Source: Candidatus Nomurabacteria bacterium (lineage in GTDB: Bacteria > Patescibacteriota > Minisyncoccia > Phycocordibacterales > UBA9973). Taken from it: a stretch of DNA of 32,423 nucleotides. Below the pieces are notes generated by a model. That model searched no databases. It saw only the letters and a list, made by a program, of their open reading frames with translations, and had not been told where the DNA came from. Positions 5,201 to 13,329 of the stretch are shown here, piece after piece (positions within the stretch are counted from its first letter, which is position 1; every line of letters begins with the position of its first letter). A program made the position numbers and the translations under genes. Where the stretch lies: contig SIBT01000002.1 in NCBI GenBank assembly GCA_009695015.1, positions 1 to 32,423 on the forward strand, read 5' to 3'.

Positions 5201-7438
5201 ATGAAATTATTAATTGTTGAATCACCGTCGAAAGCGAAAACTATCGAAAAATATTTAGACAGTGCTTCCACATCTGCCGCGGATCGTTTTACTGTGCGCG
5301 CTTCCATCGGACATATTCGTGATTTACCAAAATCAAACAAAACAGCGATAGACATCGAAGCGGGTTTTGTTCCGCATTATGAAATTTCTAAAGGTAAAGA
5401 AAAAATTGTACATGAATTACAAGGATTAGCATCCAAGGCAAATGAAATAATATTGGCGACTGACCCTGATCGCGAAGGAGAAGCTATTGCTTGGCACATC
5501 GAGACACTTTTGAAACAAGATAAAAAAGTAAAAGCGCCGATCGAGCGAGTGACTTTTCATGAGATTACAAAAGATGCAGTAGAAGAAGCATTGAAGCATC
5601 CACGCCAGATCGATACAAACTTACGCAAAGCTCAAGAAGCACGCAGGGTACTAGATCGACTAGTCGGGTATGATCTCTCTGGACTTATTTGGAAAAAAGT
5701 ACGATATGGACTCTCAGCTGGACGTGTGCAGTCTCCAGCATTACGCATCATCATGGAACGTGAACGCGAGATTCGCGCTTTTATTCCTGAAAAATATTGG
5801 AAGATTTTTGGACTATTTGAGACTTTTAAAAAGGAAAAAATAATTTTAGAGTGTAGTGAAGAACCGCGAGATGAAAAATTAGTAGAGAAAATATTAGAAG
5901 TCGGAAAATCTGGAACTTGGTTAGTAAAGAGTGTAAAAGAATCAGAACAAAAACGTTCCCCGCGCGCGCCTTTTACCACTTCAACTCTTCAGCAAACTGC
6001 GAGTTCACGTCTCGGATACTCCCCTTCACGAACGATGCAAATTGCACAAAAACTTTACGAGTCTGGACACATCACCTATATGCGTACGGATAGTACAAAT
6101 TTGTCTACAGTGGCACAATCGCAAATAATTTCTTTTGTTCAAAAAAAATATGGTAATGAATATGCTGAAGCGCGCATTTACAAAACTAAATCTAAAAATG
6201 CACAAGAAGCGCACGAAGCGATACGCCCGACTCATATCGAGCATCTTATTGCCGGTAATGAAGATCAAGACAAGCTCTATAGATTGATCTGGGAACGTGC
6301 AGTGTCTTCACAAATGACTGATGCAAAATTATTAAAAACAAAAATTTCAGCGAATGTAGCTGGAACTTCTGAAATCCCTGATTTTTCTGCCAATGGTTCT
6401 CGTCTACTCTTTCCAGGATGGCTTGCGGTAGATTCGGATGCAAGAGGTGATGATGTGGAATTACCAAAATGTATTGCTGGAGAAGAATTAAAATTGATCA
6501 ATCTAGAGAGTGAGGAAAAATTTACTGAGCCACCAGGCCGATACAGTGAAGCAGGACTCATCAAAGAACTTGAAACCAGAGGTATAGGCCGACCTTCCAC
6601 TTATGCTTCTATTATGCGTACAATCGAAGAACGTGGCTATGTGACAAAGCAAGGTAAAACTTTATTTCCGACCGACGTGGGTGAAGTCGTCTCTGATTTT
6701 TTGGAAAAACATTTTATGAATTATATTTCAGATAGCTTTACAGCCGAAATGGAAGACAAGCTCGATGAAATTTCTCTCGGTGAGAGACAATACGAAAAAA
6801 CCTTGAAAGATTTTTATGGTCCATTTTTAAAAGATGTGAAATCAAAAGAAAAGTTGGAAAAAGCTACAAACTTGGGTGATGCGCCAGAGAATATAAAATG
6901 TCCAAAATGCGGAAGTTCAATGATTATAAAACTTTCTCGTGGAGGAAAATTTTATTCTTGTTCAAAATATCCAGATTGTGATGGAGCACTGATGCAAGAC
7001 GGTACTGAATTAAAGGGTCCAACAGAAACAGGAGAAAAGTGTCCAGAATGTGGAGAAAAAAAAGGAAAATCAGGCGGAGGAAAACTTGTCATTCGCGAAA
7101 GACGAGACGGTACAGGCACATTTATTTCTTGTTCTCGCTATCCAAAATGTAAATTTATAAAAAGTGACGAGGCGGATCAAGCAAAAAAGAGGACTGGGGT
7201 ATTGTGTCCAACATGTAAAACTGGCGATATCAGTGAACGCCGTGGAAGATTTGGCATTTTCTATTCTTGTTCAAATTATCCAAAATGTAAATTTGCAATC
7301 AAAGCAAAACCTACAGGCAATATATGCAAAGAATGTGAAAGTTTGATGATGGAAGGCACGAAGACTATACCAGAGAGATGTAGCAACAAAGCCTGTTCAC
7401 AACACAATCCTCACAAAATTAAAAAAATAGACGACTAA
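5201..7438 (+). CDS. topA: DNA topoisomerase I with C-terminal Cys4 zinc-ribbon repeats
   Basis: The Toprim start is MKLLIVESPSKAKTIEKYL. The active-site region is ITYMRTDS. At least three clear CxxC...CxxC zinc ribbons are present (CPKCGS..CSKYPDC, CPECGE..CSRYPKC, CPTCKT..CSNYPKC). The ORF track starts at GTG 5183; ATG 5201 fits the conserved N-terminus better. Confidence 0.95.
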   Translation: MKLLIVESPSKAKTIEKYLDSASTSAADRFTVRASIGHIRDLPKSNKTAIDIEAGFVPHYEISKGKEKIVHELQGLASKANEIILATDPDREGEAIAWHIETLLKQDKKVKAPIERVTFHEITKDAVEEALKHPRQIDTNLRKAQEARRVLDRLVGYDLSGLIWKKVRYGLSAGRVQSPALRIIMEREREIRAFIPEKYWKIFGLFETFKKEKIILECSEEPRDEKLVEKILEVGKSGTWLVKSVKESEQKRSPRAPFTTSTLQQTASSRLGYSPSRTMQIAQKLYESGHITYMRTDSTNLSTVAQSQIISFVQKKYGNEYAEARIYKTKSKNAQEAHEAIRPTHIEHLIAGNEDQDKLYRLIWERAVSSQMTDAKLLKTKISANVAGTSEIPDFSANGSRLLFPGWLAVDSDARGDDVELPKCIAGEELKLINLESEEKFTEPPGRYSEAGLIKELETRGIGRPSTYASIMRTIEERGYVTKQGKTLFPTDVGEVVSDFLEKHFMNYISDSFTAEMEDKLDEISLGERQYEKTLKDFYGPFLKDVKSKEKLEKATNLGDAPENIKCPKCGSSMIIKLSRGGKFYSCSKYPDCDGALMQDGTELKGPTETGEKCPECGEKKGKSGGGKLVIRERRDGTGTFISCSRYPKCKFIKSDEADQAKKRTGVLCPTCKTGDISERRGRFGIFYSCSNYPKCKFAIKAKPTGNICKECESLMMEGTKTIPERCSNKACSQHNPHKIKKIDD

Positions 7439-7448
7439 AAAGAGAAAA

Positions 7449-7484
7449 GGCTGGAGACAGGTGCACCAGCACCTGTCTCCAGCC
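7449..7484. terminator. Bidirectional rho-independent terminator between convergent topA and the MaoC-like gene
   Basis: 16-bp perfect stem: ggctggagacaggtgc (7449-7464) and gcacctgtctccagcc (7469-7484), with a 4-nt loop. It is flanked by an A-run on the left and TTTT on the right. Confidence 0.75.
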
Positions 7485-7496
7485 TTTTGATAGAAC

Positions 7497-9049: not shown

Positions 9050-9135
9050 GTGCAGTATTCTTGAATTAGTCCGAACGCATTTCGGGAAGGAAATCCCTCC
9101 GCGAAAATTCGGAAAGGCGGCGGAGCCGCACCGCT
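9050..9135 (+). repeat. 86-bp inverted repeat 'e', left copy
   Basis: gtgcagtattcttgaattagtccgaacgcatttcgggaaggaaatccctccgcgaaaattcggaaaggcggcggagccgcaccgct. It is the exact reverse complement of 9911-9996 (86/86, checked base by base). Confidence 0.95.
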
Positions 9136-9138
9136 GAC

Positions 9139-9162
9139 AATTTCAAGTTTTTCTTTGGCGGC
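9139..9162 (-). repeat. 24-bp fragment identical to recombinase codons (inverted copy of 10230-10253)
   Basis: The reverse complement of 9139-9162 is gccgccaaagaaaaacttgaaatt, identical to 10230-10253 (AAKEKLEI). It sits between the cargo ORF stop and repeat e. Confidence 0.85.
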
Positions 9163-9180
9163 AAATTCTTTAATGATTTC

Positions 9181-9831
9181 TTAATGAAGAAATTTAAAGG
9201 TCGAAAGAACACTATTGAGTAAGGCTAAAACACTACTCTCATTTACTCTCGAAATCTTAGTGTTTGTTGAGTAAGCTAAATCTGTTGTGTTAATTCTCAA
9301 AATTATTTCTAAACAACCCTGCTCATGAAGAGTTCGATACATCCAATCTTTACTTTCATGTCCGGATGATTTGAATATGCCACCCGCCGTCTCGGAGAAA
9401 GTAATATTATCGATTTGTTTTTTAGGAATAACAGTCCCAACACATTTTGCTTCGGTATCAAAACGCTTAATCACGCTTATTGCAACCGCGGCTCCCTCAA
9501 GATTTGTATCTGTGTATGATTTAGATGGAAAATATAAACATGCGACTATATCACGAGGATCACATGGATAAAAAATATTATGTGGCAAAGCTGAAATTTT
9601 TTGTCGATCCTGTTCTCCATCGTAAAATTCCCCACTTGGTGGGTAGCTTATCTCAAACCCGTATTTCTCATTTGTATATTTTTTCCAGTCAGAAACTTGA
9701 GCTAAAGCTGGAGGTTCTTGTCCTTGGTTAATGGGTGTTTGCCTCTTGGACATTATAAAATATCCACCAGCGATTATGATAGCAACGACGACAACAATCA
9801 AAATAATATTTACAAATCCTTTTTTACTCAT
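9181..9831 (-). CDS. Hypothetical membrane-anchored or secreted protein (N-terminal TM helix, extracytoplasmic domain)
   Basis: 216 aa with an ATG start. A single N-terminal hydrophobic helix (FVNIILIVVVVAIIIAGGYFI) is followed by a Cys-containing soluble domain. I recognise no catalytic motif. Confidence 0.7.
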   Translation of the reverse strand: MSKKGFVNIILIVVVVAIIIAGGYFIMSKRQTPINQGQEPPALAQVSDWKKYTNEKYGFEISYPPSGEFYDGEQDRQKISALPHNIFYPCDPRDIVACLYFPSKSYTDTNLEGAAVAISVIKRFDTEAKCVGTVIPKKQIDNITFSETAGGIFKSSGHESKDWMYRTLHEQGCLEIILRINTTDLAYSTNTKISRVNESSVLALLNSVLSTFKFLH

Positions 9832-9833
9832 AT

Positions 9834-9860
9834 GATTAAAAAATTTTCTTCCCCCAAAAT
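9834..9860 (-). repeat. 27-bp 'A box', inverted copy, 2 nt upstream of the cargo ORF ATG
   Basis: The minus strand reads attttgggggaagaaaattttttaatc, identical to the plus strand at 10093-10119. Confidence 0.9.
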
Positions 9861-9861
9861 T

Positions 9862-9910
9862 AAAATATGGTTCGAGCCGATGTTTTTCTCCGGGTTCTTT
9901 TGCGGTTTTG
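9862..9910 (-). repeat. Two abutting inverted fragments of the recombinase gene (B: 27 bp, C: 21 bp)
   Basis: 9862-9888 is the reverse complement of 11471-11497 (gaaaaacatcggctcgaaccatatttt). 9890-9910 is the reverse complement of 10274-10294 (caaaaccgcaaaagaacccgg). One nucleotide (9889) joins them. Confidence 0.9.
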
Positions 9911-9996
9911 AGCGGTGCGGCTCCGCCGCCTTTCCGAATTTTCGCGGAGGGATTTCCTTCCCGAAATGCGTTCGGACTAATTCAAGAATACTGCAC
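9911..9996 (-). repeat. 86-bp inverted repeat 'e', right copy
   Basis: Exact reverse complement of 9050-9135. It overlaps repeat D by the 4 nt GCAC (9993-9996). Confidence 0.95.
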
Positions 9997-10092
9997 CACG
10001 TAGGAAAAGTCAAAGAGTTTTGGTTCGCCTCGCTTCGCTCGGCGACCAATTGGTATTCAATTTTTGGGGTAAAAACGAATTGGCGGTTTCGC
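9993..10092 (-). repeat. 100-bp inverted repeat 'D', left copy
   Basis: Reverse complement of 11498-11597 with 99/100 identity. The single mismatch is at 10034 versus 11556. Confidence 0.95.
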
Positions 10093-10119
10093 ATTTTGGG
10101 GGAAGAAAATTTTTTAATC
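10093..10119 (+). repeat. 27-bp 'A box', 17 nt upstream of the recombinase ATG
   Basis: attttgggggaagaaaattttttaatc, identical to the minus strand of 9834-9860. Confidence 0.9.
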
Positions 10120-10136
10120 CTTAATCAAACAACAAT

Positions 10137-11645
10137 ATGAAATACATACTTTATGCGAGAAAATCTACCGAAGAAGATGACCGACAAGTGCTTTCGATTG
10201 AAGCGCAACTCGTAGAGTTGCAAGAGTATGCCGCCAAAGAAAAACTTGAAATTATCGCTTCCTTCCAGGAAGCCAAAACCGCAAAAGAACCCGGGCGAAT
10301 AAAATTCGCAGAAATGTTGTCATTGATTGAGAGAGGAAAGGCAGATGGAATTATTTCGTGGCACCCCGACCGCCTCGCGCGCAATTCGGTGGACGGCGGA
10401 AAGATTATTTATTTTGTAGATCGCGGCTTGATTCGCTCTCTAAAATTTCCCACTTTCTGGTTTGAACCGACACCGCAAGGGCTATTTATGCTGAACATTG
10501 CTTTTGGCCAATCAAAATATTTTGTAGATAATTTGCGAGAGAATGTGAAGCGAGGTTTGCGGCAGAAAATCAGGAATGGCGTATGGCCCGGCTGGGCCCC
10601 GGTTGGCTACCTAAATAATCCTAAAACTCGCGGGATTGATGTTGATAGCAAGAAAGCACTCAAAGTGAGGAAGTTGTTTGAAATGTACGCCACCGGAGCA
10701 TATACGCTTCATTCTCTCGCAAATTGGTGCAGGGAAAATGGTTTAGTCGGCAATCTCGGCAAGCCGCTTGTCATCGCCAATATTCAGAAAAATCTACAAA
10801 ATGTTTTCTACCTTGGCTTGATGAAATGGAAGAGGGAAATTTTTGAGGGAAAACACGAGCCGTTAATTTCAAAGAAACTTTTTGATTCTTGCCAAGAAGT
10901 GATGGCGAAACGCGGGAAGGTACAAGAAGTGAGAAAACACCACTTTACTTTTCTTGGCTTACTCAAATGTGCTTCGTGCGGTTGCTCCATTACTGGAGAG
11001 CGACAGAAAGGACATAACTACTATCGTTGCACCAAAAAGAAAGGTCCTTGCCAAGAAAAGCATTATCTCCGCGAGGAAGCATTAACCGAGCAAATCAAAA
11101 ACTTCTTGCAAAAAGTTTCTTTATCGAGCCAAGACACCGAGAAAGTTCTAGCGGCGTTAGATACAGAACAGGATAAAGCGAGAGAGGATGCACAAAGCGA
11201 AGTTGGGATCTTAAAAGACCAATTATCACAATTTGAGATAAAACTTCAAAGGTTGTTAGACATTTATTTAGCCGATGCTTTATCCACAGAGGAATACACC
11301 GCCAAAAAACAGAGTTTGCTGTCTCAAAAGGTCGCTCTCGTGGAGAAAATCACCGACTTTGAGCAAAAAGGATTATCTTGGCTCGAACCGGCTCGTGAGT
11401 TCGTAAAATCCTTAAATCAAGCCATAAAATTGATTGATGAGAATAATCTTTCCGAATTGCCAACATTTCTGAAAAACATCGGCTCGAACCATATTTTGCG
11501 AAACCGCCAATTCGTTTTTACCCCAAAAATTGAATACCAATTGGTCGCCGAGCGAGGCGAGGCGAACCAAAACTCTTTGACTTTTCCTACGTGGTGCCCA
11601 GGGAGAGAATCGAACTCTCATGATGTTGCCATCAATAGATTTTGA
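10137..11645 (+). CDS. Large serine recombinase (resolvase catalytic domain + recombinase domain + zinc ribbon + coiled coil)
   Basis: 502 aa ORF. The N-terminus MKYILYARKSTEEDDRQVLSIEAQ contains the catalytic Ser motif. DRLARN, WAPVGY and the zinc ribbon CASCGCSITGERQKGHNYYRCTKKKGPC are present, followed by a long coiled-coil-like segment. The frame only stops (TGA 11643-11645) after reading antisense through 54 nt of tRNA-Leu, so the native C-terminus is uncertain. Confidence 0.9.
   Translation: MKYILYARKSTEEDDRQVLSIEAQLVELQEYAAKEKLEIIASFQEAKTAKEPGRIKFAEMLSLIERGKADGIISWHPDRLARNSVDGGKIIYFVDRGLIRSLKFPTFWFEPTPQGLFMLNIAFGQSKYFVDNLRENVKRGLRQKIRNGVWPGWAPVGYLNNPKTRGIDVDSKKALKVRKLFEMYATGAYTLHSLANWCRENGLVGNLGKPLVIANIQKNLQNVFYLGLMKWKREIFEGKHEPLISKKLFDSCQEVMAKRGKVQEVRKHHFTFLGLLKCASCGCSITGERQKGHNYYRCTKKKGPCQEKHYLREEALTEQIKNFLQKVSLSSQDTEKVLAALDTEQDKAREDAQSEVGILKDQLSQFEIKLQRLLDIYLADALSTEEYTAKKQSLLSQKVALVEKITDFEQKGLSWLEPAREFVKSLNQAIKLIDENNLSELPTFLKNIGSNHILRNRQFVFTPKIEYQLVAERGEANQNSLTFPTWCPGRESNSHDVAINRF
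11498..11597 (+). repeat. 100-bp inverted repeat 'D', right copy (recombinase 3' coding end plus the last 6 nt of tRNA-Leu)
   Basis: gcgaaaccgccaattcg...cttttcctacgtggtgc, matching the reverse complement of 9993-10092 at 99/100. Confidence 0.95.
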
Positions 11646-11678
11646 GTCTATCGCGTCTACCAATTCCGCCACCTGGGC
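11592..11678 (-). tRNA. tRNA-Leu (anticodon CAA), class II with a long variable arm, CCA encoded
   Basis: Manual fold of GCCCAGGTGGCGGAATTGGTAGACGCGATAGACTCAAAATCTATTGATGGCAACATCATGAGAGTTCGATTCTCTCCCTGGGCACCA. The acceptor is GCCCAGG/CCTGGGC. The anticodon arm is ATAGA-CTCAAAA-TCTAT. The variable arm is GATG-GCAA-CATC. The T arm is GAGAG-TTCGATT-CTCTC. Confidence 0.92.
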
Positions 11679-11750: not shown

Positions 11751-11768
11751 TATCTCATATATGAGATA
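11751..11768. promoter_or_regulatory. 18-bp perfect palindrome spanning the first ATG of the HTH-MurA gene (candidate operator)
   Basis: tatctcatatatgagata is its own reverse complement. It overlaps ATG 11761 and lies 14 nt upstream of the alternative ATG at 11782. An AT-rich background lowers its significance. Confidence 0.35.
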
Positions 11769-13329
11769 TACTGTTTTTTATATGACTAAAGTAAGAAAAG
11801 AAACCGAATTAGAAATAGAGACTGAACAGCAAAAGATCGGTTATTTTATTAAAGAATTACGTGAACGACGTGGGATGACACAAGAACAGTTTGCTAAAGC
11901 CTTGAATACTTCTCAGAGTTCAATTCCACGTATGGAGAAAGGCGAGCAGAATTTTACCACAGAATTACTCCTAAAAATAAGTAACGTTTTAGATCATCAG
12001 ATAGTTTCTATAAATGATTCGATCGATTTCGAAGTAAATGGAGGTAAAAAATTAAGTGGAACGATAAAAACCAATTTTTCAAAAAATGGTTCCGTGGGGC
12101 TTCTTTGCGCTTCTCTTGTAAATAGTGGCACAACTACTCTCCATGGCATCGCCCGGATTGAAGAAGTGTTTCGTGTGATTGAAATATTAGAAAGTATTGG
12201 AGTTATTGTAAAATGGCTCAACCAGAATACTTTAACAATTACACCACCCAATAAATTTACTATAGAAAATATTAATATAGATTCAGCGATCAAGACACGT
12301 TCGATCGTGATGCTCATAGGGCCCCTCATTCACAAATTATCTTCTTTTTCTATCCCCCACGCATATGGATGCAATCTCGGTAAAAGAACTATCGCTGCTC
12401 ATATATATGCGTTAGAAGAACTTGGCGTAAAGATAAAAACAACAAACAAAAGTTATGATGTTAGTGTAAAAAAACTTAAACCAGCAAAAAATATAGTGAT
12501 GTATGAAACCGGGGAAACAGCCTGTGAAAATGTTTTGTTTGCTTCGGCTTTAATTTCCGGAGCTACCACGATAAGTTTTATGAGTAATAACTATTTCGTC
12601 CAAGAGATTTGTTTTTTCTTAGAAACATTGGGGGTAAAAATCGATGGCGTTGGTACGTCTACTTTGACCGTTCATGGGGTATCCGAAATAAATAAAAATG
12701 TCGAATATTCAAATAGTGAAGACCCGATCGAATCTATGATGTTTATTTCAGCTGGAATTATTACTGATTCACATATCATTATCACTCGCGTGCCCATAGA
12801 TTTTTTATCTTTAGAACTTGAAAAATTAAAAAGAATGAATTTGAAATACAAAATCTTAAAAAGATACTACTCACACAATGGTCGAACAAAACTCGCTGAT
12901 ATAGAAATTTTTCAAAGCAAATTGAAAGCATTACAAGATAAAATACATGCAAACATTTACCCCGGAATAAATATAGACAATCTTCCCTTCTTTGTGCCGA
13001 TAGCAATACGCGCCAAAGGACAAACGATGATTCACGATTGGTATTATGAAAATCGCGCAATCTATCTGACTGAATTAAACCGCCTCGGTGCGGAAATCAC
13101 TCTCGCAGACCCTCATCGTCTCTATATTGTAGGTGGAACAGCTCTTAAGGGCGCTCAAGTGGTTTGCCCGCCTGCCCTGCGTCCTTCGATGGTCATTTTG
13201 ATCTCTATGCTCGGAGCTAGTGGTAAATCAATCTTACGAAATGTCTATATGATAAATCGTGGTTACGAGGAAATAGCCGAACGACTAAATTCTATCGGCG
13301 CAGATATTAAAATAATCAAGGGAAACTAA
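11761..13329 (+). CDS. murA: UDP-N-acetylglucosamine 1-carboxyvinyltransferase (MurA) with an N-terminal XRE-type helix-turn-helix extension
   Basis: 522 aa. Residues ~25-80 (IGYFIKELRERRGMTQEQFAKALNTSQSSIPRMEKGEQNFTTELLLKISNVL) form a typical HTH_3/XRE motif. The rest aligns to MurA: GGKKLSGTIKTNFSKNGS (Lys22 region), YGCNLGKRTIAAHI (Cys115/Arg120 loop), YPGINIDNLPFF (Asp305 region) and INRGYEEIAERLNSIGADI (Arg397 region). The start may be ATG 11761 or 11782. Confidence 0.85.
   Translation: MRYTVFYMTKVRKETELEIETEQQKIGYFIKELRERRGMTQEQFAKALNTSQSSIPRMEKGEQNFTTELLLKISNVLDHQIVSINDSIDFEVNGGKKLSGTIKTNFSKNGSVGLLCASLVNSGTTTLHGIARIEEVFRVIEILESIGVIVKWLNQNTLTITPPNKFTIENINIDSAIKTRSIVMLIGPLIHKLSSFSIPHAYGCNLGKRTIAAHIYALEELGVKIKTTNKSYDVSVKKLKPAKNIVMYETGETACENVLFASALISGATTISFMSNNYFVQEICFFLETLGVKIDGVGTSTLTVHGVSEINKNVEYSNSEDPIESMMFISAGIITDSHIIITRVPIDFLSLELEKLKRMNLKYKILKRYYSHNGRTKLADIEIFQSKLKALQDKIHANIYPGINIDNLPFFVPIAIRAKGQTMIHDWYYENRAIYLTELNRLGAEITLADPHRLYIVGGTALKGAQVVCPPALRPSMVILISMLGASGKSILRNVYMINRGYEEIAERLNSIGADIKIIKGN

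Follow-up and report, generated by a model that had tools for sequence, protein, structure and literature searches.

Large serine recombinases (LSRs) of the phage integrase type, for example those of phiC31, Bxb1 and A118/LI, are three-domain enzymes that integrate DNA through a 2-bp crossover without target duplication, at attP and attB sites whose half-site motifs are offset by 5 bp, and the integrated state is stable without an accessory factor. LSRs also move small non-phage elements, namely Tn4451/Tn4453 (TnpX) and Tn5397 (TndX), and in Tn4451 a promoter is formed across the joined ends. The invertases Hin, Gin, Cin and Pin are serine recombinases of ~190 aa that act on ~26-bp sites and are encoded beside a segment bracketed by inverted repeats; in hin the enhancer sits within the gene. 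In integrons the gene for a tyrosine recombinase (IntI) is divergent from a slot of unrelated, tightly packed ORFs that lie in one orientation and are separated by palindromic attC sites, which act as folded single strands. The yeast 2-micron plasmid is an autonomous replicon on which segments are flipped frequently by the tyrosine recombinase FLP, between two long inverted repeats that are kept identical.

Here we describe an element that bears comparison with each of these systems. It lies in the window, by which we mean the whole 32,423-nt stretch of a Candidatus Nomurabacteria bacterium genome that was analysed. Patescibacteria are bacteria with very small genomes, and little is known about the routes by which they exchange genes; the element family is found in hundreds of their species-representative genomes, at no fewer than 552 loci, and literature searches found no earlier description of it. 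The parts of the element that define its extent are as follows.

9050-11597, plus strand: mobile element in full, 2.55 kb, adjoining the tRNA-Leu 3' end; it opens with GT-GC-AGTATTC... on the left and closes with ...CGTGGT-GC on the right
9050-9135, plus strand: A arm, left copy
9911-9996, minus strand: A' arm, right copy of the 86-bp repeat
9993-10093, minus strand: B' arm, inverted copy of the LSR 3' end and right arm
10137-11645, plus strand: LSR gene, 502 aa, starting 141 bp past 9996; its last codons overlap the tRNA antisense
11471-11497 and 11497-11597, plus strand: F and the B arm, right end and putative P-type att arm, which gives the tRNA its ACCA
11592-11678, minus strand: tRNA-Leu(CAA), the target gene; its last 6 nt (GCACCA) lie inside the B arm

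The original prediction had drawn attention to perfect 86-bp inverted repeats that enclose a 216-aa ORF with a single N-terminal TM helix together with fragments of a recombinase gene, 141 bp away from a gene for a serine recombinase of the large type. All of this was borne out. Both a repeat search and blastn self-comparison showed that 9050-9135 and 9911-9996 are reverse complements at 86/86 positions, the ORF is at 9181-9831 on the minus strand and has an N-terminal hydrophobic segment, four segments inside the repeats match LSR-gene or LSR-leader DNA, and the enzyme of 502 aa has three LSR domains. When extended, the A-arm pair covers 91 nt at 98% identity, and an arithmetic estimate of the chance expectation for such a pair is ~1e-43 per random 32-kb sequence. 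It can also be seen that the 9050-11597 element contains six nested inverted-repeat pairs, the 86-bp pair among them. They include a second long pair that the prediction did not contain, 9993-10093 and 11497-11597 (101 nt, 99% identity), which flanks the recombinase gene. Nor did the prediction mention the tRNA-Leu(CAA) gene that adjoins this second pair. We consider that the 86-bp repeats are probably duplicated copies of an attachment-site arm, placed around the one-gene cargo slot of an LSR integrative element that inserts at tRNA 3' ends.

The same layout is repeated in more than 50 related Patescibacteria loci, where DNA homology to the window begins at 9050 and ends at ~11597-11617 regardless of the flanks, and all six repeat pairs are kept in LSR lineages down to ~66% identity. 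Inverted chimeras are a known artefact of amplification and of de Bruijn assembly, and a perfect inverted duplication might be regarded as one of them. However, the six pairs recur in the same order in more than 50 independent assemblies from various studies, assemblers and lineages. These comparative data refute a chimeric origin, to which we attach a negligible probability. The element terminates to the left in A1 (the outer part of the A arm) and to the right in B, two sequences that do not form an inverted pair, and the A' and B' copies are internal. An insertion sequence or MITE with terminal inverted repeats was ruled out, as the inverted repeats are not both outer termini.

The position of the element with respect to the tRNA gene involves four further features.

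9052-9053, unstranded: candidate GC crossover dinucleotide, left copy, in an attL-like junction
9054-9084, plus strand: A1, outer arm, putative P-type att half-site
9088-9135, plus strand: A2, inner, cassette-side part of the A arm; the A1/A2 split is taken from the empty elements L036 and L024 and the two-cassette locus L050
9970-10020, minus strand: internal junction and attP look-alike, consisting of B-end, GC (9994-9993), then A1; layout identical in all LSR-bearing loci

In 44 of 49 scanned loci the LSR 3' end adjoins the 3' end of a tRNA gene on the opposite strand, and at least 13 isotypes are represented. All loci have a common junction layout, with ...TGGT-GC followed by the tRNA on the right, the flank followed by ..GC-AGTATTC on the left, and ...TGGT-GC-AGTATTC at the internal junction, where the two element ends are reproduced in full, joined and inverted. 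The dinucleotide GC is the sole sequence common to the left, internal and right junctions, and is found at 50/58 right junctions and before 66/79 A1 arms. At either end, homology to the more than 50 loci stops at this GC irrespective of the flank and of the tRNA, and there is no long target duplication; the crossover, placed from where homology ends, is resolved to the shared GC and no finer (GTGC in the window). The GC of insertion corresponds to positions 71-72 of the tRNA, in the acceptor stem.

The motif TCGAA starts at +13 on the tRNA side in 52/58 loci, and in 61/79 A1 arms YCGAAC is placed at +18, counted from the core. The motif read by the zinc-ribbon domain of LSRs is shifted by about 5 bp between attP and attB half-sites, the attP copy being the more distant from the core (Rutherford et al., 2013; PMC3783163). 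A1 shares TCGAAC with the tRNA T-loop, and here too the A1 copy is the outlying one, by 5 bp. The spacing of the A1 motif relative to that of the tRNA T-loop fits this rule, and the B arm fits it less clearly. A1, which comprises the 35 outermost nt of the A arm, has the features of an attP half-site. The LSR appears to read the T-loop and acceptor end of the tRNA, so that many tRNA genes would be accepted, and such a tRNA-reading recombinase would illustrate a way to widen the set of targets while keeping to the ordinary attP/attB rules.

A probable sequence of events is that the element inserted at the tRNA-Leu 3' end by site-specific recombination at the acceptor-stem GC, presumably catalysed by the LSR with A1 and B as its binding arms, and that the tRNA recovered its discriminator base and CCA from the B arm. 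A1 would be the P' half of the element attachment site. On the left the element would end in one A copy, and the other, fused to inverted B, would form the attP look-alike between the divergent cargo and LSR genes. For the window itself we observed neither a circular form nor an unoccupied parB/tRNA-Leu site. We also considered whether the A unit and the B unit might be separate mobile units, but this was ruled out since B invariably faces the tRNA and A1 invariably forms the far end, even in mini-elements that have no recombinase.

The LSR matches PF00239 Resolvase (E = 4e-21), PF07508 Recombinase (4e-13) and PF13408 Zn_ribbon_recom (5e-9), all above curated cut-offs, and has a YARKS motif with Ser10. 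Thousands of homologues that are 80-89% identical occur across Patescibacteria classes; exact-sequence look-ups of ORF216, the cargo ORF, and of the LSR returned no record. No recombination directionality factor is encoded in the element. Like the phage-type integrases, then, the system has a three-domain enzyme, a probable 2-bp crossover without target duplication, half-site motifs offset by 5 bp and integration that is apparently stable without an accessory factor. It differs from them in targeting the generic 3' end of many tRNAs and not one gene, in having a palindromic GC as its likely core dinucleotide, in being a 2.5-kb unit with one cargo gene and not a phage, and in having both identical arm pairs of ~100 nt and, in its interior, a full inverted copy of the joined ends. 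Standard and flipped signatures of the LSR segment each gave zero matches among IMG/VR viral contigs, which argues that the element is not phage-borne. The likeness to Tn4451/Tn4453 and Tn5397 is that of a small non-phage element moved by an LSR; those elements are without long inverted repeats, an internal copy of the joint or specificity for tRNA ends.

The features on either side of the internal junction are listed below.

9136-9170, plus strand: C, 3' trailer of the cargo slot, an inverted copy of LSR coding nt 10222-10256; in the same place in ~45 loci
9181-9831, minus strand: ORF216, cargo gene, 216 aa, with an N-terminal transmembrane segment and a ~170-aa domain with two invariant Cys, distantly PsbP_2-like
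9834-9910, minus strand: conserved cargo leader, in the order D' (9910-9890), F (9888-9862) and E (9860-9834), stopping 2 nt before the ATG
9985-10013, minus strand: sigma70-like promoter match TTGACT-17-TATTCT, spanning the junction of B and A1 and aimed at the leader and ORF216
10093-10119, plus strand: E, a 27-nt LSR leader that lies upstream of the LSR start, identical to the copy before ORF216
10222-10256, 10257-10273 and 10274-10294, plus strand: C', a 17-nt palindrome and D' within the LSR ORF, forming a covarying hairpin between ultra-conserved flanks

The A arms bound what would be a one-gene cargo bay, with an ORF between the leader D'-F-E and the trailer C, and the cargo in the window is predicted to be a membrane-anchored PsbP-like protein. 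Its family is large (2033 representative clusters at E<=1e-3), and an ORF216-type element with the same layout was also found in another flank (L098). Elsewhere the gene between the A arms differs and is unrelated from locus to locus, for example methyltransferases, an HD-domain protein and a YjeF-like protein, and the ORFs are nearly always divergent from the LSR. They look promoterless, are in fixed orientation and have a conserved ATG 2-20 nt past the leader. Each leader segment copies a segment of the LSR gene, 9890-9910 being the reverse complement of 10274-10294, 9862-9888 that of 11471-11497 and 9834-9860 that of 10093-10119, and the same leader precedes unrelated cargo ORFs at other loci. 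The idea that the junctions of this mosaic are GC crossovers fails, as the junction between F and E has a single A instead of GC.

The promoter match has its -35 in B and its -10 in A1, both hexamers are at family-conserved positions, and as a consensus match alone it agrees at 9/12 positions. The internal junction may double as a sigma70-like promoter directed toward the cargo. This recalls Tn4451, with -35 and -10 spanning a junction of ends, but here the integrated element itself contains the joint-type promoter match at all times, and the match faces the cargo.

Within a locus the two copies of an A or B arm mostly agree at 97-100%, whereas A arms from separate loci share only ~70-97% identity, and the identity within a locus covers even those positions that are free to vary between loci. 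Conservative site-specific recombination does not account for this, and gene conversion or a copying step would be needed. A different explanation is that the arms are held identical by selection for base pairing, the untranslated regions of the cargo and LSR transcripts forming stems of ~90 bp, or the DNA forming cruciforms. Identity within loci and divergence between them is what such selection would leave, and the short hairpin within the LSR ORF does covary: 96% of cells are paired, 45 are changed on both sides and 0/500 shuffles scored as high. Selection at the level of structure therefore operates in the element. However, the predicted RNA fold of the 163-nt cargo leader was no more stable than shuffled sequence (z=0.64), and the idea of a structured leader was dropped for want of excess stability. 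Searches of Rfam at gathering and permissive thresholds matched the tRNA alone, diverged arms are tolerated in empty elements, and the outer arm behaves like an att half-site with motif spacing typical of LSRs. Pairing as the cause of arm identity is thus improbable.

Perfect inverted repeats beside a recombinase gene had led the original prediction to a candidate phase-variable inverton, in which the LSR would often flip 9136-9910 and so turn a surface protein on and off. As in the Hin, Gin, Cin and Pin systems, a serine recombinase gene is next to a bracketed segment, and the 5' part of the gene contains conserved DNA (C'-palindrome-D') that recalls by its position the hin enhancer. The promoter match lies outside the segment and points in, so that a flip would uncouple ORF216 from it, which supports this part of the prediction. 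In addition the GC core is palindromic, and a palindromic core gives no polarity to strand exchange, as is known for the Bxb1 and phiC31 integrases. However, the enzyme is an integrase-type LSR and not a small invertase, the repeats are 86-101 nt long (86 nt around the cassette) against the ~26-bp invertase sites and their outer part resembles an integrase att arm, and the bracketed unit is itself part of something mobile. The same repeats enclose a different, unrelated gene at each locus, cytoplasmic enzymes among them. The design is therefore not specific to surface proteins, and a stand-alone switch for a surface protein is not supported.

We examined orientation directly. The cargo has an identical orientation relative to the LSR in 52/52 intact loci unselected for orientation, made up of 35 genome loci including the window, four metagenome loci, three P0121 contigs that carry an ORF216 homologue and 10 P0100 contigs that are samples of another element. 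The expectation that related genomes would show both orientations was not upheld in this set. Two contigs have a flipped cassette. These are L095 and L087, and the cargo of L087 matches at 100% identity the cargo of L018, where the orientation is standard. Both contigs are short and end inside the repeats, and both came solely from a metagenome scan designed for flips, using a 'B-end + A + C' signature that also matches tandem insertions and left ends with B-like remnants. They could be assembler mis-joins through identical arms, and the case for rare inversion of intact elements therefore rests mainly on inversion-dependent deletion derivatives, which we found in L071, unit 2 of L092, L111-L115 (five assemblies) and L121. 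For the LSR segment the standard-orientation signature was present in 14 loci and the flipped one in 0, no locus having an intact flipped LSR segment; frequent factor-free flipping of that segment between the internal attP look-alike and the right junction was therefore rejected.

We conclude that frequent, balanced phase variation is not supported, and an inverton of this kind is unlikely. Repeats and recombinase do form one system, as first proposed, but that system as a whole is mobile and sits at a tRNA gene; it is neither a Hin/Gin-type inverton nor a stand-alone switch. The data from relatives do support rare inversions across A/A' and B'/B, which would occur because the arms are recombinogenic. 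After such a flip the C', D', E and F repeats would turn direct, and deletion between them would drop the LSR and fix the cargo beside the tRNA.

The variability of the cargo also invites comparison with integrons. In common with them, the recombinase gene is divergent from a slot whose ORFs are unrelated, closely packed and all point the same way, palindromic sites can lie between cassettes (L050), and recombinase-less cassette arrays exist (L083, L085, L091 and L092) that are comparable to attC clusters without an integrase. It is possible, and compatible with the attachment-arm explanation, that there is a second reaction at the A-arm centre. The A arms would then be hybrids of attL/attR type, produced when a circular cassette with joined A2' and A2 entered a joined A1 and A1' site beside the LSR gene, and cassettes could be added, exchanged and stacked. 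As expected for such a platform, the empty elements L036 and L024 have the A1-centre-A1' hairpin alone, L050 has two cassettes with an A2'-centre-A2 palindrome between them, and the cargo ORFs have the promoterless look, set orientation and start position described above. The A1 motif GTYCGRAC is moreover palindromic, with ~16 nt between it and the outer core and ~15 nt between it and the arm centre, so that one protein could read A1 from either side.

Several observations weigh against it. No free or circular cassette was seen, L050 is the one clear two-cassette locus within A arms, and the A arms of the window are without the GC-rich centre hairpin of most relatives. Homology between elements breaks at ORF edges and not at the arm centre, and the cassettes of the LSR-less arrays have A1 and B-type ends, not A2 ends. 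A recent cassette swap, that is near-identical LSRs with different cargo, was not found, the only near-identical LSRs belonging to copies of one element. We therefore regard this second reaction as a tentative proposal. The element further differs from integrons in that its recombinase is a serine enzyme, no other recombinase being present, it usually has one cassette, the platform itself moves among tRNA genes, and the cassette flanks copy segments of the recombinase gene; its sites, unlike attC, are not known to act as folded single strands.

If the element were circular, two identical inverted B-GC-A junctions would split it into recombinase and cargo segments, with repeats kept identical, in the manner of the 2-micron plasmid, which differs in its tyrosine recombinase, autonomous replication and frequent flipping. 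Going back to the integrative element, each insertion carries a single gene of any kind to a tRNA locus, so this could be among the main ways in which Patescibacteria gain genes. A broader reading, which we offer with reserve, is that the family is a mobile serine-recombinase counterpart of the integron. The LSR would hop among tRNA 3' ends and capture single-ORF cassettes at a palindromic acceptor beside its own gene, while inversion independent of any factor, made possible by the mirrored arms and the palindromic GC core, would happen now and then, shedding the LSR and leaving domesticated cassette arrays downstream of tRNA genes throughout Patescibacteria. LSR-type recombinases serve in genome engineering. 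What preserves or abolishes directionality is a question posed here by the mirrored arms and palindromic core, and likewise by the attP look-alike at the internal junction and the hairpin that covaries within the LSR gene.

Finally, contig L081 is compatible with either a tandem or a circular joint. Its two B arms differ, which favours tandem insertion, and tandem insertions of different elements at one tRNA were seen in both L097 and L081.

The 86-bp A arms, described originally as exact inverted repeats, are indeed perfect reverse complements (86/86; a longer version found by self-comparison covers 91 nt at 98% identity), and simple arithmetic gives about 1e-43 such pairs expected by chance in 32 kb. 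The 216-aa ORF between them (ORF216) and the serine recombinase gene starting 141 bp after 9996 were also borne out, and as the 502-aa product of the latter has Resolvase, Recombinase and Zn_ribbon_recom domains it is a large serine recombinase (LSR). Self-comparison of the window revealed that the A pair is one of six nested inverted-repeat pairs, as set out below.

Inverted-repeat pairs and genes of the element
9050-9135 with 9911-9996: A/A' pair
9136-9170 with 10222-10256: C/C' pair; C' lies within the LSR gene
9181-9831 (-): ORF216, the cargo gene
9834-9860 with 10093-10119: E'/E pair; the same 27 nt ahead of both start codons (cargo and LSR)
9862-9888 with 11471-11497: F'/F pair; F lies within the LSR gene
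9890-9910 with 10274-10294: D/D' pair; D' lies within the LSR gene
9993-10093 with 11497-11597: B'/B pair, 101 nt, 99% identity; brackets the LSR gene body
10137-11645 (+): LSR gene
11592-11678 (-): tRNA-Leu(CAA); its final six bases (GCACCA) form the B-arm end

GCAC (9993-9996) belongs to both A' and B', which overlap there. The 3' part of the LSR ORF (11598-11645) runs past the element end into the tRNA in antisense, so that the last 16 codons are target-derived, which explains the variable C-terminal lengths of the homologues (488-656 aa).

LSR homologues number in the thousands, at 80-89% identity and from many Patescibacteria groups, with at least 552 loci in species-representative genomes; no copies of the element were found in IMG/VR viral contigs, and literature searches yielded no description of the family. 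DNA homology between the window and related loci is typically continuous from ~9830 to ~11615 and, beyond a variable gap, picks up at 9050-9163. Wherever it is covered the module order is constant (A, C, cargo, E', F', D, A', B', E, LSR with C', palindrome, D' and F, then B and tRNA), and this still holds for LSRs only ~66% identical to that of the window.

In 44 of the 49 loci scanned the 3' end of an opposite-strand tRNA gene abuts the 3' end of the LSR gene, the tRNA being Gly, Tyr, Leu (five anticodons), Arg (six anticodons), Ile, Phe, Lys, Glu, Met, Asn, Val, Gln or Ala. The right junction is uniform among loci (...TTTCCTnnnTGGT-GC followed by the tRNA body), as are the left junction (host flank, sometimes a native tRNA end remnant such as GT, TGGT or GGC, then GC-AGTATTCTTGAATTAG) and, on the minus strand, the internal junction (...TGGT-GC-AGTATTC...). 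The GC is present at the right junction in 50/58 loci and ahead of A1, the outer part of the A arm (9054-9084), in 66/79 arms. These uniform junctions and the position of the GC therefore define the element ends as A1 (distal) and B (tRNA side); the B arm provides the ACCA of the tRNA, and the internal A'/B' junction repeats the joined element ends in full and in inverted orientation, giving an attP look-alike. The segment 9050-11597 is a mobile element targeting tRNA 3' ends. The closest relative of ORF216 (P0121, 91% identical) lies in the same element layout with a different host flank, and the cargo therefore travels with the element. At one tRNA in each of L097 and L081 different elements stand in tandem, their outer and inner B arms being unlike, which indicates that a second element probably inserted between the resident element and the tRNA, so that insertion can also take place at a resident right junction. 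Immediately left of A1 in L097 (1-140) and L081 (whole contig) is a complete B arm belonging to another element variant. The element encodes no directionality factor. In another locus, L002, the element region lies between two tRNA-Tyr(GTA) genes (1280-1365 and 5456-5541), one next to the LSR end and the other 1.4 kb past the left end; this arrangement could reflect duplication of the target or be what is left of an earlier event.

The GC inferred as the core is self-complementary. In LSRs that have been studied, polarity is set by the core dinucleotide alone; with a palindromic core, recombination in the "wrong" alignment would not be forbidden. On the tRNA side the T-loop TCGAA starts 13 bp from the GC in 52/58 loci, and in A1 (T/C)CGAAC occurs at 18-23 bp in 61/79 arms. 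The zinc-ribbon-domain motif occupies bp 16-24 in attP half-sites and bp 11-19 in attB half-sites, a 5-bp shift (Rutherford et al., 2013, PMC3783163). A1 thus resembles a P-type half-site and the tRNA end a B-type one, both for a single protein, which would explain the acceptance of many tRNAs.

Within one locus the arms of the A pair and of the B pair are mostly 97-100% identical and the A arm is ~70-97% identical between loci; the arms therefore evolve in concert. Since identity extends even to positions free to differ from locus to locus (for example, the nnn of CCTnnnTGGT), a gene conversion or copying step seems to be called for. A possible extension, compatible with this scheme, is a second reaction in which cassette circles integrated into a palindromic acceptor site at the arm centre, which would make the A arms mirror-image attL/attR-type hybrids. 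Traces expected from such integration are seen in two LSR-bearing elements without cargo that have only an A1-centre-A1' hairpin (L036, L024) and in L050, where an A2'-centre-A2 palindrome (A2 being the inner part of the arm) lies between two cassettes; the GTYCGRAC of A1, a palindrome in itself, lies about as far from the outer core as from the arm centre. However, the examples are few, the window arms lack the GC-rich centre present in most relatives, and neither a circle nor a recent exchange was found.

In every locus the slot delimited by C and E' is occupied by a different, unrelated ORF (SAM-methyltransferase-like, HD-domain, SRPBCC, YjeF-like kinase, YdcF-like and several membrane-anchored proteins), so the repeat design is not tied to surface proteins, and the switchable surface protein proposed originally finds no backing here. 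In almost all cases the cargo ORF diverges from the LSR, and it typically starts 2-20 nt past the conserved leader, often with a conserved ..AATCATATG. The variable part amounts in the window to little more than ORF216 (9171-9833). Its family comprises 2033 representative clusters at E<=1e-3, is characterized by a hydrophobic segment at the N terminus and a domain of ~170 aa, with two cysteines that are invariant, and shows weak similarity to PsbP_2 in 8/32 members; none of the solved structures is a sequence relative. It is plausible that ORF216 is an envelope protein.

On the minus strand (10013 to 9985) a sigma70-like match, TTGACT-17-TATTCT, lies across the internal B/A1 junction, both hexamers being at family-conserved positions, and this putative promoter is directed through A and the D'-F-E leader into ORF216. 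The original prediction held that a flip would uncouple the ORF from its control region; with a candidate promoter outside the segment this stands in part, as a flip would silence the cargo if the promoter, a consensus match only, is real. Folding gave no excess RNA stability for the cargo leader.

We counted orientation in loci not selected for it, the genome set having been retrieved via the LSR alone. In this set one A arm lies behind a full B arm and is followed by D' in 35/35 loci, including the window, and the other lies behind host flank and is followed by C. The same standard orientation was seen in four more metagenome loci (L090, L093, L096, L097), in 3/3 contigs with P0121 and in 10/10 contigs, from ten samples, of another element. 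Altogether, 52 of 52 unselected loci share one orientation. A single targeted scan of metagenomes, with "B end + A + C" as signature, returned 17 loci. The majority are tandem insertions, recombinase-less units or left ends that retain B-like remnants; L087 and L095 are the two contigs with a truly inverted cassette beside an LSR. L018, whose cargo is 100% identical to the one in L087, has the standard orientation. L087 and L095 are short contigs whose ends fall in repeats and, as the arms match over ~98 nt, may represent an assembler mis-join instead of a flip. At L018 3855-3885 the internal A1'-GC-B' junction is absent (82 nt fewer than L087, otherwise 100% identical), through either natural deletion of the internal att-like site or assembly collapse. 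Among intact elements none had a flipped LSR segment, 14 loci matching the standard signature against 0 flipped.

Deletion derivatives are stronger, though indirect, evidence of inversion than L087 and L095. The order in L071 (flank-GC-A1-A2-D'-rest of LSR) requires a cassette flip and then deletion between the now-direct D' copies. An LSR-segment inversion across B'/B, followed by deletion between now-direct C, D', F or E copies, is required for L092 unit 2 (A1-A2-C-LSR 5' end in reverse complement-E'-B-tRNA), for L111-L115 from five assemblies (tRNA-B'-E-LSR 5' end-C'-palindrome-D'-F-E-cargo-C'-A2'-A1') and for L121 (tRNA-B'-E-cargo-C'-A2'-A1'). We conclude that inversions across both repeat pairs have happened but are rare, tending to end in loss of the recombinase. 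Recombinase-less cassettes also occur downstream of tRNA genes in arrays of one to three (L083 2360-3380; L085 1-3560; L091 340-1400; L092 8190-9340; L086 1740-2810), each with conserved leader, trailer and A arm, and some keeping only the last 12-16 nt of the B arm or an AT-rich promoter-like spacer. These arrays look like successive insertions next to the tRNA with the LSR lost after each.

The original reading as a phase-variation inverton is not upheld, as both the enzyme type and the single orientation differ from those defining Hin-type invertons; integrons are defined by a tyrosine integrase, which the element does not have. In enzyme and site logic it is an integrase-type LSR element, but differs from the known ones in its generic tRNA-end targeting, its palindromic core, its mirrored arms of ~100 nt together with the joint copied internally, and its one-gene cassette bay flanked by copies of recombinase-gene segments.

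Between the ultra-conserved C' and D' the LSR ORF contains a 17-nt palindrome, GCTTCCTtccAGGAAGC (10257-10273), which persists as a stem of 7 bp in ~85 of ~95 LSR genes and has three covarying pairs (96% of cells paired and 45 cells changed on both sides, a value reached by 0/500 shuffles). The compensatory changes alter the encoded amino acids (for example, ASFQEA vs ASLCEA). The palindrome is a functional site in the DNA or else a hairpin of the RNA within the coding sequence. The decamer GGCTCGAACC, complementary to a tRNA T-arm, occurs twice, ~100 nt apart and in different reading frames, at 11380 and 11481 (spans 11380-11394 and 11479-11490); both copies rank with the most conserved DNA of the gene and could serve the recombinase as decoy or accessory sites. 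The ORF also has a perfect 14-nt inverted repeat (AAAGAAACTTTTTG at 10871-10884 and CAAAAAGTTTCTTT at 11109-11122), both arms lying on ultra-conserved DNA islands.

Elsewhere in the window, the ORF beside the tRNA (11761-13329) encodes an unusual combination of an N-terminal Cro/C1-type helix-turn-helix (PF01381) fused to a full EPSP-synthase/MurA-type domain (PF00275). Two further repeats look ordinary: a perfect 20-nt hairpin just past the topoisomerase I gene (7445-7488), probably a terminator, and a 42-nt direct repeat inside that gene (7115-7294) that corresponds to its repeated zinc-ribbon motifs.
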